A stretch of DNA of 64,000 nt from Octopus vulgaris (Eukaryota), in assembly GCA_951406725.2 (NCBI GenBank), contig OX597827.1, positions 77,872,001 through 77,936,000 of the forward strand. The letters are read 5' to 3'. This document shows, one piece after another, positions 1 through 60,504 of this stretch (positions within the stretch are counted from its first letter, which is position 1; each line of letters opens with the position of its first letter). Both the position numbers and the translations under genes were made by a program. The notes below the pieces were generated by a model. The model had not been told where the DNA came from and ran no database searches. It worked only from the letters and a program-made list of their open reading frames with translations.

Positions 1-267
1 TCAGTATATCATAATTCTTTGGTTGTGCTGAGAAAAGAAAGAGAAAAAATATATAGAGAGAGAGAGAGAAAAAAAAAGAAGATAAAAAAAAAAAACAAAG
101 AAGAAGAACAGTTTTGAAAAAACAGAAACATAATTAAATGTGAAGACATAGAAATTATTATATGAAAAAAATAAGTCAATTAAGGAAACTAACAAATGAA
201 GGAATAACGAGGAAACGCTGTTTGAAGAAGGCCATTTGGTGAAGGATCGTTTGACATCGGCATTACA

Positions 268-2634
268 ATGTTTTCTGTGCATTCCCTGTATGGTAACATG
301 GGAAATGATTTCAACTTGGAATTCAGCATCGACAGCAGCCGTTTGATATGCGATCAGCCTGTCTTCCCTCAGAATGAACTCTACCACCAGCAGCTGCAGC
401 AGACGGGCAGTTTCTGCAGCGGTGGGAGCAACGGCGGCACCGTGAAACCGAAAGAAGAGAAATCAGTGTTTCCCATCGCGAACGATGGCTACACGATTAG
501 CCATAGCCTCGCTGGTAAAAGCCTCGTTAGCAACGACAGCCATCATAATGAGAAGCCGAGCAAAAGCAGCAACAGTGCCGGCAACAACAACAACAGCCAC
601 CACCACCACCACCACAACAACAACAATAATGTCAACCACGTTAACCACATCGCTGTCAGCTCTACCACCACCACCACTGCTAATGTTACAACTACAACTG
701 CAGCTACTACAAACAGTTCTGCTATTACTACTACTACTACTATTACTTCTACTTCTACTACATCTTCTACTACTACTACTAGTACTACCACTATTTCTAG
801 TGACTGTGTCGATGGTATGGGTTTAGGCCCGGACGACAGTAAGGACAGAAGCTGTTTCCTGAACGTTGGTAATAATGTCGACGAGGATTCGTTGTGTGAC
901 GAGGCCAGCATGAATGGCCTTGGTGCGGTCAGAGAGAGTTGGCTGGACAAGGACAACCACCTGAACAACAACAATCACCTGAACTGTAACAATAACATTA
1001 CGAACAGCTGGATAGGTTGTGATTTGAAAGAGAGAATAGCCATGGGCTGGATGAGTGGTAGTGTGAGTAGCAGTGATAGTATTGGTGGTGGTGGTGGTGG
1101 TGGTGGTGGTGGTGGTGGTCAGACAGTCGTGAAAACCGAAAGGACAGACTCGAAAGCCTTCAAGTGCCATCTCTGCCGTAAAGCATTCTCGCGACGTGCC
1201 AACCTGCGCAACCACGAGCGTGCGCACTGGAACGGCAAACAGCACTCGTGTCTTCATTGTGGCAAGCTCTTCTCACACCGTGCACACCTGGTCATCCACG
1301 AGCGAACTCACACTGGAGAGAAGCCATTCCTTTGCCCTGTGTGTCCGAAGCATTTTGCACAGAAGGTGCACCTTCAGAATCATGCGAGGACCCACACGGG
1401 CGAGAAACCTTACCGTTGCCGATACTGTACGAAAGCATTTGCTCAGAGGGACCACTTAAACAACCACGAACGTATCCATACCGGGGAGAAACCATTTACG
1501 TGTTTGAGGTGTTCAAAATCATTTACCCAACGTGGACACTTAAAGAACCACCAAAGAACGCACACGGGGGAGGCGCCCTACAAGTGCAGCTTGTGTTCAA
1601 AGGCGTTTGCACAGCGATCACACCTGAACAACCATGAGCGCACGCACAACGGTGGCGCTCACAGTCTTCATAGTAACATAAGCAACAGCAGCAATAGTAA
1701 CGACAGTTGCAGTGACGGACGATCGCACATGAATGATTCCGAACATCTCCACAACAACAACAACAACAACAACACCACCACCAACTCTCCCGTTTCGATG
1801 TATAACCGATGCTGCAGTGCAGTGAGTTGCACTTGCAGCTGTGGTGTGTGTGAGAGGTGTCGTGGTGTGCAGTTAGGGATTAAAGTTGAGGAGGACAGCA
1901 ATGATGGAATAGCAGAGTGCAGTAGCAGATGCGACTGCAGCAACAGCAGTGGCAGCTGCAGCAGCACGAGCTGTACCAGCAGCAACAGCTGCGCCAGCAA
2001 CAGCTGCAGCAGCAGCAACAATAGTTGCACCAGCAGCAACAGTTGTACAAGCAACAGCTGTAATAGTAACAGCTGCAGTTGCCCCAGTTGTCAGGGGCAA
2101 CCGCACCACAATCACCACCTGAACAGTAACAACAACAACAACAACAGCAACAATCATCACCCCCATCACAATCATCATCATCAGTGCAGTAACCACAGCT
2201 CGGGACAGCATCATCATCACCACCACCATCACCACCACCACCACCACAGGCATCACTTGCACAACCTCACGCAGAACTCGCTGACGTCGTTGCAGCTGGT
2301 CTCGCCCTCCACGTCGCTCTCGACGCCGCTGCTGTCGTCATCGTTGTCATCATCGTTGTCGTCGTCGTCGTGTGGAGTCACAGACGGAGGTGGCGGGGGA
2401 GGGCTGATGGGGTTCGGCGCCGACATCTGCAAGAAAGAATTCTGTTTCCAGTCATCAGACAACCTGTTCCCTAAGAAACAGGAACCAATCCTTCCCACCG
2501 ACATGAAGATGTTGACCTACGACATCTGTAAGAAGGTCCTCTCCCAGAAGACCACCCTGAAGAAGTGTAAACACACGAGCACGGGGGAGGTGCTTTACAG
2601 TGCCCTAAATCTCCTCTCTGGGTATAACCACTAA
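268..2634 (+). CDS. C2H2 (Kruppel-type) zinc-finger protein, 788 aa, single coding exon, six tandem fingers
   Basis: Six CxxC-x12-HxxxH fingers at about 1159-1647 with TGEKP-type linkers. In-frame stop at 223-225 upstream of the ATG. Poly-N/H/T/G tracts, a Cys/Ser-rich block and a degenerate C-terminal finger. Confidence 0.93.
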   Translation: MFSVHSLYGNMGNDFNLEFSIDSSRLICDQPVFPQNELYHQQLQQTGSFCSGGSNGGTVKPKEEKSVFPIANDGYTISHSLAGKSLVSNDSHHNEKPSKSSNSAGNNNNSHHHHHHNNNNNVNHVNHIAVSSTTTTTANVTTTTAATTNSSAITTTTTITSTSTTSSTTTTSTTTISSDCVDGMGLGPDDSKDRSCFLNVGNNVDEDSLCDEASMNGLGAVRESWLDKDNHLNNNNHLNCNNNITNSWIGCDLKERIAMGWMSGSVSSSDSIGGGGGGGGGGGGQTVVKTERTDSKAFKCHLCRKAFSRRANLRNHERAHWNGKQHSCLHCGKLFSHRAHLVIHERTHTGEKPFLCPVCPKHFAQKVHLQNHARTHTGEKPYRCRYCTKAFAQRDHLNNHERIHTGEKPFTCLRCSKSFTQRGHLKNHQRTHTGEAPYKCSLCSKAFAQRSHLNNHERTHNGGAHSLHSNISNSSNSNDSCSDGRSHMNDSEHLHNNNNNNNTTTNSPVSMYNRCCSAVSCTCSCGVCERCRGVQLGIKVEEDSNDGIAECSSRCDCSNSSGSCSSTSCTSSNSCASNSCSSSNNSCTSSNSCTSNSCNSNSCSCPSCQGQPHHNHHLNSNNNNNNSNNHHPHHNHHHQCSNHSSGQHHHHHHHHHHHHHRHHLHNLTQNSLTSLQLVSPSTSLSTPLLSSSLSSSLSSSSCGVTDGGGGGGLMGFGADICKKEFCFQSSDNLFPKKQEPILPTDMKMLTYDICKKVLSQKTTLKKCKHTSTGEVLYSALNLLSGYNH

Positions 2635-19990: not shown

Positions 19991-20109
19991 ATGCTTACTA
20001 CACCAAGGTTTCCCAAGCGATCACCCATCTAAGTACTAATAAGGCTTGATGTTGCTTAACTCTGGTGACCAGAAGAGAACCAATATGTTCAGCATAATAT
20101 GGCCATGGC
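19991..20109 (-). pseudogene. 5S rRNA pseudogene (full length, decayed)
   Basis: Minus strand GGCCATA..GGTTCTC..TCACCAGAGTTAAGCAACATCAAGCC..TTAGTACTTAGATGGGTGATCGCTTGGGAA follows the metazoan 5S consensus with many CpG-type transitions. Solitary copy. Confidence 0.88.
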
Positions 20110-28497: not shown

Positions 28498-28584
28498 TCT
28501 GTAAATGTAATATGTGACAATTATTCATTAGCCATGATGAAACTCCGAGTTTTATCATTTTTTGTAGCATTTTTTCCGATGACC

Positions 28585-28647
28585 GGATAACTGAAGAGAT
28601 GGCGACGTGGATTTCCTCCTCGGCATCCGAAACTCAGAGTTGTATCT
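28585..28647 (+). ncRNA. Type I hammerhead ribozyme motif within inverted repeat 28494-28690
   Basis: GGATAA-CTGAAGA-GATGGCGA..TCGGCATC-C-GAAA-CTC-A-GAG-TT-GTATC. Both core boxes and three stems are present, with minor mismatches. Confidence 0.65.
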
Positions 28648-28746
28648 TGGCTACCGAATAATTGTCACAAATTACATTTACAGATAAATTCCTCTATTTA
28701 CATAATATCGAGGTGTCTTTCATTCTTTTGTTGTCTTACCATTTCT

Positions 28747-28784
<38 letters not shown>

Positions 28785-47384: not shown

Positions 47385-47578
47385 TACCGGAGTAAACACA
47401 TAAATGTGAAACAAGGTGGAAAAAAGAGTACTCAAATACCAGTGGTAGAGTAATATGCTTTATTTAAAAGCAGCAGAAAATTCAACAAAATCTGTTACTC
47501 TGAGTTTCACGTTGCCGTTCATCAGACGAGAAACTCAGAGTAACAGATTTTGTTGAATTTTCTGCTGCTTTAAATAAA

Positions 47579-47580
<2 letters not shown>
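47385..47580. mobile_element. Penelope-like inverted-repeat element in (TA)n
   Basis: Near-perfect arms of about 48 bp at 47460-47508 and 47530-47578. Family copies at 34790 and 43918. Confidence 0.7.
47491..47527 (-). ncRNA. Type I hammerhead ribozyme core (stem I truncated by the inversion junction)
   Basis: Minus strand GT-CTGATGA-ACG-GCAA-CGT-GAAA-CTC-A-GAG-TA-ACAGA. A full stem I (AAAACTGT/ACAGTTTT) survives in the copy at 44019-44063. Confidence 0.65.
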
Positions 47581-47634
<54 letters not shown>

Positions 47635-49560: not shown

Positions 49561-50980
49561 TCAGAATTTGGGCACTATGGCCCACTCAAGTAGAGAGTTA
49601 TTGTTTACAGAGACATATCCGGGTGTAGGGGGTTTATCCGGGATTTCTTGAAGGAATCTGTCCAAAGACTTCTTGAACCCTATAGGGTCTGTTTCTGTTT
49701 TAATGAGTTTTGGTGTAATGTTAAAGAGAGCGGGTCCAATTGAGGTGAAATAATTGTGCCGTATTGTTGTTATGAGATGAGAGTGTGATTTTTGTTGTGG
49801 ACGGATGGCATGGGGCCCAAGCCTTGGATGTACGTTAAAGGTGATGCCAACATCATTTGGGCAATGCTGATGGAATATTTTCCACATCATGCAGATGATG
49901 TAGCGCTCACGGCGACGTTGGAGAGAATAAAGTTTTAGCTTTTCTAGTCGACCCCAATAGTCGAGGCCTGTCATGCCATCTATCTTTTTTGCGATTGCCC
50001 TTTGAGGTGCTTCAACTTTTATGATACTTTGTTTTGTGTGGGGAGACCACAGTGGACAACAGTATTCAAGGTGGGGGTCGGGCAAAAGTGGAGAAGAGAA
50101 GGATAATGGTGTGGATATCTCTCGACTGGAAAGTTCTGAGAATCCAGGAACACATTCTGCGGGCCATGTCAACTTTGGTGTTTATATGAGTGGCCCAGCT
50201 TATGTTGTTGTCCACAATTATTCCCAAGTCTCTGATGTTGTTGGATGCCACGAGAGTTTCACCTGAAGGAAGGGAGTATGGGAGTTTCAGGGCATCCTCT
50301 TTTCCAAAGTGGATTAACTCGAATTTATCCTCGTTCAGCAGCATATTGTTCTTTTCTGCCCATTGGATAACAGCCAGTAGATCTGACTGAATGCATGTCC
50401 GGTCACTCGCCTCATTTATGACCTTCTGGAGCTTGGAATCATCTGCAAAGATTTTTATGTTGCTGTGCTTGATGATGTCATTAATGTAGATGATGAAATG
50501 AAGTGGGCCCAGCACAGTGCTTTGCGGAACGCCACTACTGACTTTGGCTGGGCTTGATTTTACTCCTTCAACTACAACATGTTGAGATCTGTCTGTCAGG
50601 AAACACTTGATCCAGTTCAGTAACTTTCCAGAGACACCAATGTTGGATAGTTTTTTCGATAGGATCTTGTGATCAACCCTGTCGAAGGCCTTGCTGAAAT
50701 CAAGGTAGATGACATCGGTGTTGGAGCCCTCTCCCAAAGCTTTCAAAATGTCATCAAAGTGATGCAGGAGCTGCGTTAGGCAGTCCCTTCCATTACGGAA
50801 CCCATGTTGGTTAGAGATCAGCCATCTGTTGCTTTCTAGAAATTGGGACTTGTTTCCCTTTTTGAAAACTGGGACAACAGACTGGGACAGAAAGTTTTTA
50901 GGAATATAGCCAGCATCCAGTGAGTTTCTCCACAGATTAGTAAGGGGAGATGCAAGTTGGTGTCGAAACACCTTCAGGAC
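49561..50980 (-). pseudogene. Non-LTR reverse transcriptase plus C-terminal domain
   Basis: QHGFR, YLDFSKAFDRVDH, GVPQSTVLGP, FADDSKL, RDLGI and RPHLEYC motifs. A +1 frameshift lies in the run at about 50073-50077. The NYRPISL segment is missing after KKGNKS and there is no APE domain. Confidence 0.93.
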
Positions 50981-51547
50981 ACAGAGAGCAGTGGTTTCTT
51001 ATTTGGTTTTTTGTTGGTGGTATTTTTGGTGATAGAAGACGATGGTGGCAGCGGTGTTGGTGATGATGATGATGATGATGATAATTGTGGTGGTTGCTGT
51101 GAGAGCGGTGAATAGATACTGGTATTCAGGGAATCATCTATTATGCTAGAGTTTAGGAGTGGCTGTTGTTGCTGTGACTGTTGTTGTTTCTGTGGCTGTT
51201 GTTGTGCTTGACCGATGTCAGGGTCAGCTATTATGCTGGGAACTAGGAGTGGCTCATTCTGTTGTTGTTGTTGATTTTCTAGCTGTTGCTGTTCTTGGGC
51301 TTGAACAGTGAAAATATAAAGTTTTTCAAAACGGGTTTTAGTTAGTTTGAAAGAGACTTCGATATGCTTCAGTTTGCTACGAATCGGTTTGACGGATCGT
51401 GTGTTGATTATTTGCGATGTTTTTTCGGCAATCTCATTCAAACATAAAACATTAAAATTTTCTGTTTGGGAAAGAGAGAACCAAGTGTTAATTAAGACAT
51501 CAATTTCATTATCAGACCAATTTCGTCTGTTGCAGGTTAGTCGTCAT
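50974..51547 (-). pseudogene. Myb/SANT-like domain ORF followed by a Q/S/P-rich linker (putative ORF1)
   Basis: The frame is open from 51543: TCNRRNWSDNEIDVLINTWFSL..NEIAEKTSQIINTRSVKPIRSKLKHIEVSFK. The ATG at 51545-51547 is 1 nt out of frame. Confidence 0.6.
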
Positions 51548-52022: not shown

Positions 52023-52087
<65 letters not shown>

Positions 52088-52170
52088 CGGAGTAAACAAG
52101 GTGGAAAAAAGTATATATATAAATAAATGAAAGAATGGAGTTGAACGAAGATGTTAACAAAATTCCTTTA

Positions 52171-52252
52171 CTCTCGACACATGTTTCGAAGACAGCATAT
52201 TTTCATTCCGAAGGAATAAAGGGTGCATTATGCAATTTTCTCATCAGGAAAG
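52171..52252 (-). ncRNA. Type I hammerhead ribozyme (long stem II)
   Basis: Minus strand CTTTC-CTGATGA-GAAAATTGCAT..ATGCTGTCTTC-GAAA-CATGTG-TC-GAGAG. Confidence 0.7.
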
Positions 52253-52335
52253 AAAAGGAACGATAATCGCTTTGGTTACCATGTAGGCAATCATCGAAAT
52301 TTTTGTTTGTCTTGTTGTTGTGAGAGGCTCTTTTT

Positions 52336-52395
52336 CTTTCCTGATGAGAAGATTGCATAATGCACTCTTTATTCCTTCGAAACATGTGTCGAGAG
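52336..52395 (+). ncRNA. Type I hammerhead ribozyme with canonical GUC site
   Basis: CTTTC-CTGATGA-GAAG..CTTC-GAAA-CATGTG-TC-GAGAG. The conserved core nucleotides are present and stem III contains the palindrome ACATGT. Confidence 0.75.
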
Positions 52396-52598
52396 TAAAG
52401 GAATTTTGTTAACATCTTCGTTCAACTCCATTCTTTCATTTATTCATATACAACACACAAATTTCTGCACATGAACCCGGAGTTTCTACCCTTGGACAGG
52501 TCGCTTCAACCGTGTTTTCTGACGTGAATTTGCTACCCAGGTTTCGGTTAAACGAATTTTCCATGCTGACGATAAACATAGGATAATTCATTCACCTA

Positions 52599-52705
<107 letters not shown>

Positions 52706-54543: not shown

Positions 54544-54998
54544 CATTATTTACATTATTTACATTTGATGGCTATTTGTCCTCATCTTGTTGGCTGATAT
54601 ACCCTCCAGCCTTCATCAGGTGTCCTGGGCAAATTTCAAACCTGGGTTCTCATTCTTAAGGTATTTTTCAATGTTGAAAATAACATCCATTTATGAATTT
54701 ATTTATTTAAAATTTTTTTAAATACATATTTTACCTATGAATTTGCGTGTGTAATCTAGGAATGCATACAATGAGCTTCTCTGCCATAGGTGTACGGAAA
54801 ACACCCGGCGAGAAATGGAAGAAAATTTGAAGAAAGAAGGAAAAAAAAATAATAATAACATTGAAAAATACCTTAGGAATGAGAACCCAGGTTCGAAATT
54901 TGCCCAGGACACCTGATGAAGGCTGGAGAGTATATCAGCTGAAATGCTGTGTTAACAACAAACAAGATGAGGACAAATATCCATCAGATGTAAATAAT
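54544..54998. mobile_element. Inverted pair of a hammerhead-bearing repeat
   Basis: Arms 54544-54674 and 54857-54998. GACAC-CTGATGA-AGGCTG..CAGCT-GAAA-TGCT-GTGTT at 54908-54953. Related copies at 57825-57965, 21236-21320 and 15777-15812. Confidence 0.7.
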
Positions 54999-55714
54999 TC
55001 CTCATCTCTCAAACATAGAAAAGAAGTTATGGTGTTAGATATATTCTTTCATTACAAATATTGCAGCAATCCACGGTTCAGACACAACATAAATACTTAT
55101 ATATTGTAAACATTATCAAAGTTACACACTGAATGGATGCATTTTGTTTATACACTCATTAGCTGTGGGACAGCATCAGGGAGAAAAGTCTGTTTAAGAT
55201 GCCAAGTGTTGAAAAGCACTGGGTGCGGCAAACTGTGTGGGGAAATTCACCCTTAGATTGTCGAGAATGATTGTCAAGCGTGGTTATTGCCAGTGCCACT
55301 TGACTGGCTCCTGTGCTGAGGACACGTAAAATGCACCCGTTCAAGTGAGGCCGGTGCCAGTACCGTCTGACTGGCCCTCATGCTGGTGGCACGTAAAAAG
55401 CACCCAATACACGCTGAGAGTGGTTGGCGTCAGGAAGAGCATCCAGCTTTAGAAACCTTGTCAAATCAGATTGGAGCCTGGTGCAGCCTTCTGGCTTGTC
55501 AGCCCCCAGTCAAACCGTTCAACCCATGCCAGCATAGAAAGCAGACATTAAATGATGATGATGATGATGATGATGACAGACATGGTTATTTCACTTATTT
55601 TTGGAAGTTCATTGGCATCATGTCTGTGTGTTGCCTCAGAATGAATTCTAGATGCTTGGGTGAGGTACATGTGCAAATGGTGAAGAGTCTGTTTGTGAAT
55701 ATGCATCAATGCTC

Positions 55715-59110: not shown

Positions 59111-60130
59111 TTTAAGTACACATCGGTTGGTGTAGTCCTAGATACACTGTAGCAGAATAAAAGACAGATGGTCAAGGCCGTAGTGTCATTCGCCATAGGT
59201 CTGCAGTAGCAGGACAGACACGAGACCATTCTCTGAAAGTTGTCTCTGTTTCTACAGGGAAGTGTTTTATCTCTCAGCCCAACTTATGTGTAGGAAATCA
59301 AATCTCTTTTTAACTCTTGTTCAGTGACAGATACCCGGTTGTGGTGATGGTCGGGGGTTACCCTTCCCTTTTGCTAACCGAAGCTGTAACATTTTTTCAG
59401 TCGCTGCTTGAAGCCATTTCAATTCACCCTCCCTACTTGCTGCTCCTAGTATCCGCCCAGAAAAGTATAAAGCTCCCTTGTACCACCTTAATTCCTTTCA
59501 CATTAAAGGATTCACTGACCAATGTGTGTCCCAACCTTGGCTGCTTCAGAACACCTTTCGTCTGTGTATACACACACACACACACACGTTATTGTGTATA
59601 GACAAATGTCTTTGCGTATCTTTCTCTGTCTATCTTTTTCTCTCTCCTTTTCGTGCTCTATCTGTCCATCTATCTGACAATCTGGCTGGTTATGTGTCAT
59701 TTGAAGTATGTATGTGTGTTATCTATGTACCTCTCTCTCTCTCTCTCTCTCTCTCTACTTCTGTGTGTGATGAGGAGAGAGAGAACTTGAACGTATTGAA
59801 TACAGGCAACAAGTTTACTCGGCCGTTCTTTCCTATAGACTACTTTTATTTAATGTCCAACCGCATGAAGCGTTTCTGTTAGACAGCCGAGATTAAACAG
59901 TTAAGGCAATGGAGGGAAAACAGCGACGGGGAAGAGACTGGACGGGGTGACCGCCTGTCTCTACCCGTATAAATGGGTCTGTGTGTATGTGGAGGGGGGG
60001 GGTCGTATGGTAGATAGTGATAGGTTGTGAGTGGGTTGGAGGGGGAGAGAATGGATGTGGGGTGGTGGAGGAGTGAGTAACTTGTATCAGGGTGTGTATG
60101 CGTGTGAGCGTATCTATCTATATAGATAAA

Positions 60131-60292
60131 TAAGCAATAAAGGGTTTGGCAACGAATTGCCTTACCACATACCGAATTTAGAAATAGCAGTCAAAGAGTT
60201 ATAGCTATTTCTTCTACTAAAAAGGGAGTTATAGCTATTTCTAAATTCGGTATGTGGTAAGGCAATTCGTTGCCAAACCCCTTTATTGCTTA
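60131..60292. repeat. Near-perfect inverted repeat, arms about 58 bp
   Basis: 60131-60188 vs 60234-60292, followed by a decayed hammerhead-like CGAATGA-GGC..GCC-GAAG at 60312-60336. Confidence 0.8.
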
Positions 60293-60504
60293 GTATTACT
60301 TAAATTTTCCTCGAATGAGGCTTTTACATGCCGAAGACTACTTGGTGTTATTGATAATTATTCCAAATTAATTAATTTCACCCTTCATTATTACGGATAA
60401 CCATATATAGATAAATAGATAGATAGATCTATACACACACGTCTGTGTTGTATATATGTGTATGTATACACATATACGTATATACTTAGGTATCTATCTT
60501 ATCT

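Follow-up and report, generated by a model that had tools for sequence, protein, structure and literature searches.

Twin hammerhead ribozymes in the Octopus vulgaris genome as a probable by-product of two-armed insertion by a protein-coding Penelope-like element

Introduction

When two hammerhead ribozymes occur on opposite strands of one short stretch of DNA, the question is whether they belong to a small non-coding element that moves by itself, whether they act together, or whether they were left behind by something larger. A locus in Octopus vulgaris raises this question, and a first-pass annotation took it to be the best example of a diverse set of self-cleaving, non-coding retroelements. 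Here we examine the locus within the whole stretch of DNA analysed (64,000 nt, hereafter the window; assembly GCA_951406725.2, OX597827.1:77,872,001–77,936,000, forward strand), together with other copies of its family. Judged by homology to those copies, positions 52116–52601 are a short copy of a protein-coding Penelope-like element (PLE), two-armed and 5'-truncated, that lies inserted in (TA)n. The architecture, an opposite-strand hammerhead pair in a truncated PLE, is already known, and assignment to the retrozyme class is wrong; such pairs are in print (PMC4209133, PMC8557442).

The insertion and its parent element

The locus consists of two arms that are joined at their truncated ends and lie between simple repeats (Table 1). 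Homology to other copies extends from 52116 to 52259 for the minus-strand arm and from 52263 to ~52601 for the plus-strand arm, which moves the end of the insertion, earlier placed at 52450, to ~52601. The distal arms are complementary over 76 nt (99%). The minus-strand arm lacks a tail, stopping at a fixed end (E1) 60 nt beyond the cleavage site, after which (TA)n begins. The tail of the plus-strand arm ends at a second fixed position (E2), ~210 nt beyond the cleavage site, with the ATG a further ~50 nt on; we identify this tail as the 5' UTR of the next unit because in locus L078 it runs on into the start codon.

Table 1. Coordinates in the window of the insertion, its flanks and its ribozymes, and of the three other hammerhead-bearing insertions
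Positions	Strand	Feature	Basis
28498..28750	+	Two-armed 3' end of PLE with Hydra-type endonuclease; mismatch at first stem I pair	
47387..47582	-	Two-armed 3' end of canonical Hydra-type PLE (727-aa ORF); stem I lost to truncation	
52029..52084	.	(TA)n tract, left target flank	sequence
52087..52111	-	25-nt leftover of a 47.5-kb-family PLE (tailed end), inserted separately into this TA tract	by-eye comparison
52116..52259	-	Inverted, 5'-truncated, tail-less copy of the element 3' end	homology to other copies
52171..52252	-	Type I hammerhead, full 53-nt stem II region, one closing-stem mismatch; predicted cut after 52176	descriptor
52260..52262	.	3-nt junction joining the 5'-truncated ends of both arms	
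52263..52450	+	Sense copy of 3' UTR / pseudo-LTR	homology to other copies
52336..52395	+	Type I hammerhead, 22 nt deleted from stem II; surviving CTTCG at 52375–52379; predicted cut after C52390	descriptor
52451..52601	+	~150-nt tail; in tandem copies, the following unit's 5' UTR	L078 comparison
52602..52703	.	(TA)n then (GATA)n, right target flank	sequence
54545..55020	+	Two-armed 3' end of Penelope/Poseidon-type PLE; core mutated on one arm, deleted on the other	

We regard the locus as a very short insertion of a coding PLE because copies that bear an open reading frame (ORF) share its arms. The minus-strand arm is 92–95% identical over 140–148 nt to the 3' ends of four such copies (L031, L063, L064, L066), and longer copies carry the same two arms around an ORF with a reverse transcriptase (RT) plus a GIY-YIG endonuclease at the C terminus. 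In L031, where 2 kb of coding DNA lie between the arms found in the window copy, the order is (TA)n, inverted tail-less arm, RT with YRDD, Asn-rich stretch, GIY-YIG, 3' UTR with hammerhead, tail and again (TA)n. The hammerhead sits in the pseudo-LTR or 3' UTR, as it does in L078 and the copies aligned, and such pseudo-LTRs are formed by partial tandems.

Open frames in the family of the window copy (the 52.3-kb family, after its place in the window) span 785–833 aa, and a sister family, with 74% identity over the RT query, carries 899-aa frames in 3.6-kb tandems. This sister family (L074–L076, L333–L352) is young, its members being mostly 96–99% identical at the 3' end and many having intact 899-aa frames; in its hammerhead the cut site is GUA and the stem III palindrome is perfect over 8 nt. 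Against the ORFs of the 52.3-kb family and its sister, Pfam gave a sub-threshold GIY-YIG match (E 0.008) and no RT match, and since Pfam is weak or silent here, the domain calls rest on motifs, on by-eye likeness to published Hydra proteins and on homologues, of which 403 at E <= 1e-30 were found among 7994 candidates scored, a near one being labelled Argonauta hians.

Several motifs point to the Hydra clade. The C-terminal endonuclease is without CCHH and places CxxC and CxH on either side of its conserved E and N (L071, L074), and DKG is modified to DKT (L062, L074, L078). In a quick RT tree, the lineage is nested with support of 99 among proteins with Hydra motifs, including L247 (a member of the 47.5-kb family described below), and far from two Poseidon-type rows; this tree covers 32 of the 120 homologues, with SH-aLRT support only, a careful search unfinished and the named published Hydra sequences outside it. 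Other motifs are absent or altered. The CxCX5C linker zinc finger, present in L247, is absent from L062, L071, L074 and L078, and a looser C-x-C-x(4-7)-C pattern occurs in 115 of the 120 homologues; in its place is an Asn/Ser-rich stretch of ~140 aa, and there is a further insert of ~60 aa after the thumb. The aligned place of the N-terminal RWK, which reads RWK or RWR in 106/120 homologues, reads RWL in the lineage. On these sequence characters the lineage is a PLE that we file as Hydra-like, not as a canonical member of the Hydra clade, because of the absent CxCX5C linker.

The hammerhead ribozymes

Searched on both strands with a strict type I descriptor, the 64-kb window yields exactly two matches, one in each arm of this insertion; each combines the CUGAUGA/GAAA core with a GUC site and has 5 bp in proximal stem I. 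The complete type I folds with a GUC site that had been proposed for both strands are thus recovered, and the descriptor-based fold places the plus-strand cut at the position predicted before, after C52390. Chance can be excluded as their origin, since a 24-mer across the core has 492 exact genomic matches as against 0 for its reversed control, and since the stems covary. Among 23 related sequences, 89.7% of cells are paired and 10 of 30 pairs change on both sides, so that the covariation whose absence was to have counted against the ribozymes is present; none of 500 shuffles reached 10 two-sided pairs and slid controls were lower, a count that we take as support and not as a probability because the alignment rows are related. 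The descriptor is also passed by 72 of the 86 copies in which both core halves are recognisable. No hammerhead appeared among the matches listed (150 of 272) in an Rfam scan of the window, nearly all of which were miRNA models driven by microsatellites; one spurious miRNA match led us to a long, near-perfect inverted repeat at 60127–60296, possibly another two-armed insertion.

The details of the folds differ somewhat from those first reported. Stem III had been given as the palindrome ACATGT: its self-complementarity stands, but the palindrome in register is an 8-mer, ACAUGUGU, with a U-G tandem. Among the 86 copies, 38 carry this form and 45 the perfect palindrome ACAUAUGU. Nor is the hammerhead of this family minimal, for in full copies stem II runs to ~12 bp and ends in an inner hairpin, and stem I is bulged and ~10 bp long. 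In the plus-strand arm 22 nt, not 21, are missing between two CTTCG repeats. Stem II is re-formed there to the extent that 4 bp (CTTC) remain, but this is no evidence of selection, because a deletion between the two CTTCG repeats leaves CTTC next to GAAA by construction. We consider the resulting 31-nt form of stem II a recurrent deletion, as it is found in 6 of 86 copies from several subfamilies and as L003 has one long and one short arm. A deletion hot spot in stem II, suggested by 17 deletions in one 50-nt bin, was not established, nearly all of these loci having been retrieved with the deleted arm as query.

Folding models suggest that the 22-nt deletion probably damages the plus-strand ribozyme: the hammerhead fold lies 8.3 kcal/mol above the best fold in this arm, 2.5 in the minus-strand arm and ~2 in full copies. 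A transcript through both arms is modelled as one long hairpin (-202.7 kcal/mol, z -25.8), which is predicted to hide the ribozyme, and since read-through RNA would zip up in this way the twins are not expected to work together. Contigs assembled from three presumed-RNA runs and one unlabelled run cover the family but do not resolve starts, ends or levels, and we give no weight to the higher depth over the tail in two of them. No signature of ADAR was seen in the form of an A>G excess on the sense strand (5.8 per 1000, vs 6.7 for T>C).

Two fixed ends and their pairing

Across loci L001–L141, 142 of 149 unique 3' ends fall at just two positions relative to the hammerhead cut, 66 at E1 (+60 nt, window position 52450) and 76 at E2 (about +210 nt, ~52600). 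The seven ends at other positions were left out before pairing was counted. Of 52 two-armed insertions, 51 then pair E1 with E2, that is, one tail-less and one tailed arm, where about half would be expected if the two ends were independent; the sole exception, L003, has two E1 ends. For thirty loci of this count the tail had served as query, so that one E2 end was assured and the sample is biased towards E2. Selection of the sister family went by RT match, irrespective of its ends, with matches in 22 of 23 loci; all 13 two-armed insertions there are mixed. By eye, each of the four hammerhead-bearing insertions in the window likewise has one tailed and one tail-less arm.

The ends meet the target directly: all 32 terminal ends of the sister family run into (TA)n, as do 116 of 142 in the focal family by a crude test for a following TA run. 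In both families the long, ORF-bearing arm can be either one. The other sides of the arms show no such regularity. The position of the junction differs in nearly every copy, insertions range from ~220 to 3170 nt with the longer ones containing the ORF, and in a list of the 52 two-armed insertions by length and ends the window copy's exact junction did not recur. Junctions overlap by 1–11 nt, as BLAST ends, in 17 of 30 cases. The cut site holds no excess of 5' truncation points (7 seen, 6.1 expected), and a cluster of 5' ends at -239 was set aside as likely artefactual, the reference copy carrying a deletion. Neighbours within 4 kb, counted for the first 100 of the 492 motif matches listed, comprise 17 divergent pairs, 1 direct and 0 convergent.

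The pairing of fixed ends is likely a trace of the way in which RNA is copied by the enzyme from both strands of DNA. A literature search conducted outside subscription journals, Repbase and Dfam found no paper on the family, on a Hydra lineage without the linker or on a counted pairing rule. As far as this search reached, what goes beyond print is the one-of-each pairing and insertion into (TA)n by a lineage lacking the linker zinc finger.

Other hammerhead families in the window

At least four sequence-unrelated, non-coding families combining a hammerhead with inverted arms had been proposed for this window. Recognisable cores and arms do exist at 28.6, 47.5 and 54.9 kb, but none of these three passes the descriptor in the window and none is a non-coding family. 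That the families are high-copy, Penelope-related and hammerhead-bearing is borne out by exact-motif counts of 492, 3912, 719 and 4951 for those at 52.3, 47.5, 28.6 and 54.9 kb, respectively. The idea that they are non-coding retroelements or retrozymes fails, as longer copies of each continue upstream into RT and/or GIY-YIG coding sequence. Novelty was to be given up if the families were already annotated Penelope LTRs, and this upstream coding sequence indicates that in kind they are pseudo-LTRs of PLEs.

Tandems of 3.36 kb occur in the 47.5-kb family, whose 727-aa ORF contains RWK and DKT as well as the CxCX5C linker. Two of its loci (L247, L248) are canonical Hydra-type copies with an intact 727-aa frame in inverted tandems, whose protein is, by eye, unlike Hydra-1_Obim. 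For the 28.6-kb family an endonuclease fragment is contiguous with a 1-kb 3' UTR and hammerhead in L270, and likewise in L245/L246, which are one place; no full ORF was seen among the loci retrieved. The endonuclease of L205 was dismissed as the parent of this family, being a separate element beyond a TA tract. It is a further Hydra-type endonuclease (L205:2580–3182, minus strand) of another family, and its CxCX5C linker is intact. Among the loci fetched, it is frequent for PLEs of different families to be nested in one TA tract (for example L205, L245, L273).

Upstream of the 54.9-kb family are an endonuclease of Penelope/Poseidon type and an RT (Pfam RVT_1, E 1e-9), on finding which a reading of it as a SINE with a tRNA head was dropped. 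Its pseudo-LTR (for example in L188, L287, L294, L329) opens with a tRNA-like head bearing A- and B-box-like motifs, followed by (AAT)n and then the hammerhead; ARAGORN found no tRNA in nine loci. Some copies, including that in the window, have a segment of ~190 nt between two (AAT)n runs. Elsewhere in the window are an 802-aa frame (226–2634, plus strand) with a C2H2 zinc-finger array and low-complexity tracts, likely an exon of a host gene, and broken fragments of a non-LTR (LINE-type) reverse transcriptase in two frames (49561–50998, minus strand).

A model of insertion and its alternatives

The reading we favour, with a probability of roughly 0.88, is that the locus is a two-armed (TA)n insertion of a coding PLE, likely made by an enzyme that nicks both strands and makes one cDNA from each of two fixed RNA sites. 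The enzyme would nick both strands of the palindromic (TA)n, each of which would then prime a cDNA, one starting at E1 and its counterpart at E2. The template, in one or two molecules, would likely be an uncut tandem or circular RNA, as both ends lie past the cut site, so that every cDNA must cross it, and as 5' truncations do not pile up there. In the window copy both cDNAs would have stopped early, after ~145 and ~340 nt, and been joined at their truncated ends. Because two truncated cDNAs from both strands were joined, the twin ribozymes would be a by-product of insertion. The ribozyme of the parent element, for its part, likely cuts weakly, as a dimer or with help from protein, and would process tandem transcripts.

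Three other readings have to be weighed against this one. A retrozyme or a MITE-like unit, non-coding, non-autonomous, flanked by terminal inverted repeats and moving as one element of ~480 nt, would account for a window copy that is short, non-coding and bounded by inverted arms, and for the high copy number of its family, yet there is no fixed unit to move: junctions and lengths vary as described, the longer insertions contain the ORF, and in place of a tandem array of short monomers there is a single direct neighbour pair among the 100 matches listed. We give this reading hardly any credence. It is also very improbable that the twins are themselves functional, either as an active dimer or by cutting plus and minus strands in the manner of a rolling-circle RNA replicon. 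Stem III does stay self-complementary across its variants, and metazoan PLE hammerheads have been reported to cleave weakly as dimers (PMC4209133); however, ribozymes on opposite strands mean that any one RNA contains one ribozyme and its antisense, which pair, the hammerhead fold of the plus-strand arm is far less favourable than that of full copies (8.3 as against ~2 kcal/mol above the best fold), and neither spacing nor junctions are conserved.

The remaining reading dispenses with a second priming event, deriving the inverted arm from fold-back or template switching of one cDNA, or letting endonuclease resolution trim the tail. Craig et al. attribute the tail to such resolution (PMC8557442), and the short overlaps at 17 of 30 junctions would suit this reading, but either arm can be the long, ORF-bearing one, both ends run into the target (TA)n, and two RT start sites bounding the tail have been measured in vitro for a Poseidon element (PMC11167929). 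Moreover, one insertion of the 30 copies examined pairs a PLE arm with a whole inverted copy of 5S rRNA. We therefore consider this reading unlikely and retain priming at both strands as the likely explanation of the pairing. In the insertion with 5S rRNA (L278:1372–1600; G000:C1, ~111.928 Mb) the whole 5S copy (Rfam 99 bits) faces a tail-less 28.6-kb-family arm in opposite orientation and (TA)n lies on either outer side, so that the 5S RNA would seem to stand in for the tailed arm, which fits the use of two templates. A routine role for 5S rRNA as partner arm was rejected, this being the only case among the 30 copies examined and the query itself. Other 5S sequences came to light separately: many dispersed full-length copies (L354–L379) with pieces of common short repeats within a few bases after them, a possible 5S array near G000:C4 35.2 Mb, and a decayed copy in the window at 19992–20109 (minus strand; 62 bits, above the Rfam cut-off) with no PLE arm seen beside it.

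A more ambitious version of the model is one that we hold tentatively, rating it somewhat below even odds. It supposes that every insertion of the lineage is the work of one dimeric enzyme making two cDNAs from the strands of (TA)n at start sites that exclude one another, perhaps with the stem III palindrome keeping two RNAs together as templates, and that (TA)n is targeted without the linker. If true, the young sister family, in which many 899-aa copies are intact, would lend itself readily to tests of dimeric priming and linker-free targeting. An alternative to linker-free targeting is that the lineage is moved in trans by relatives that bear the linker; the many intact sister ORFs make this less likely.

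These observations matter in several ways. Labelling such hammerhead pairs as retrozymes would mis-annotate thousands of loci. The one-of-each pairing, at 64 of 65 insertions over two families, constrains models of the inverted arms and one-sided tails of PLEs, and a lineage that has lost the linker but keeps to (TA)n offers a natural test of the published proposal on linker function. Finally, the long inverted arms in read-through RNA would be candidate double-stranded substrates for RNA editing or silencing.

Comparison with known systems

Paired hammerheads of this kind were described by Cervera and de la Pena in Schistosoma, where dual hammerheads ~100–700 bp apart on opposite strands were attributed to truncated PLEs (PMC4209133). 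The Octopus pair shares with these the opposite-strand arrangement, the palindromic stem III and the predicted activity as dimers. It differs in host and PLE clade, and in that the Octopus family is without the +1 unpaired base before stem II and has longer stems I and II.

Hydra-clade PLEs are closest to the parent element (PMC8557442). In protein, the two have in common a single ORF with RT and C-terminal GIY-YIG, the DKT motif, the absence of CCHH and the CxxC and CxH around E and N; in structure, they share a type I hammerhead in the 3' end, a (TA)n target, an inverted 5'-truncated copy and a one-sided tail. Penelope-13_HM is listed there with a hammerhead on each strand. Craig et al. link the CxCX5C linker to (TA)n targeting, whereas in the Octopus lineage the linker gives way to the ~140-aa Asn/Ser-rich stretch, with the ~60-aa insert after the thumb and RWL for RWK. 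The sister ORF (~900 aa) and its unit (3.6 kb, as against typically <3 kb) are larger, the tail is ~150 nt here and 30–40 in print, and stem II is ~12 bp and branched. Hydra-1_Obim differs from the Octopus family, by eye, in both hammerhead and protein.

For the mechanism, the closest parallel is the Poseidon element PAc of Anolis, studied in vitro by Frangieh et al. (PMC11167929). Nicking and extension take place on both target strands, reverse transcription begins at two internal positions on either side of the tail, the process does not depend on hammerhead cleavage and the protein is predicted to be a dimer. The start site in vitro did not differ between the strands, which counts against our model. 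The features shared with our model are the two internal RT starts bounding the tail, the priming of both strands, the uncut RNA template and an AT-rich target. In PAc, however, the start sites lie inside the ORF, whereas here they are in the 5' UTR, 150 nt apart, and the target here is (TA)n. One-of-each pairing per insertion is counted here and was not measured for PAc in the part of that paper available.

Metazoan non-LTR retrozymes (Li, Clavereau and Pollet 2026, 10.64898/2026.07.22.740005) share with the locus a type I hammerhead and a connection to PLEs. They differ in kind, in that they are non-coding tandem units with a ribozyme in each, whereas the Octopus locus is the truncated end of a coding element, joined to an inverted copy of itself.
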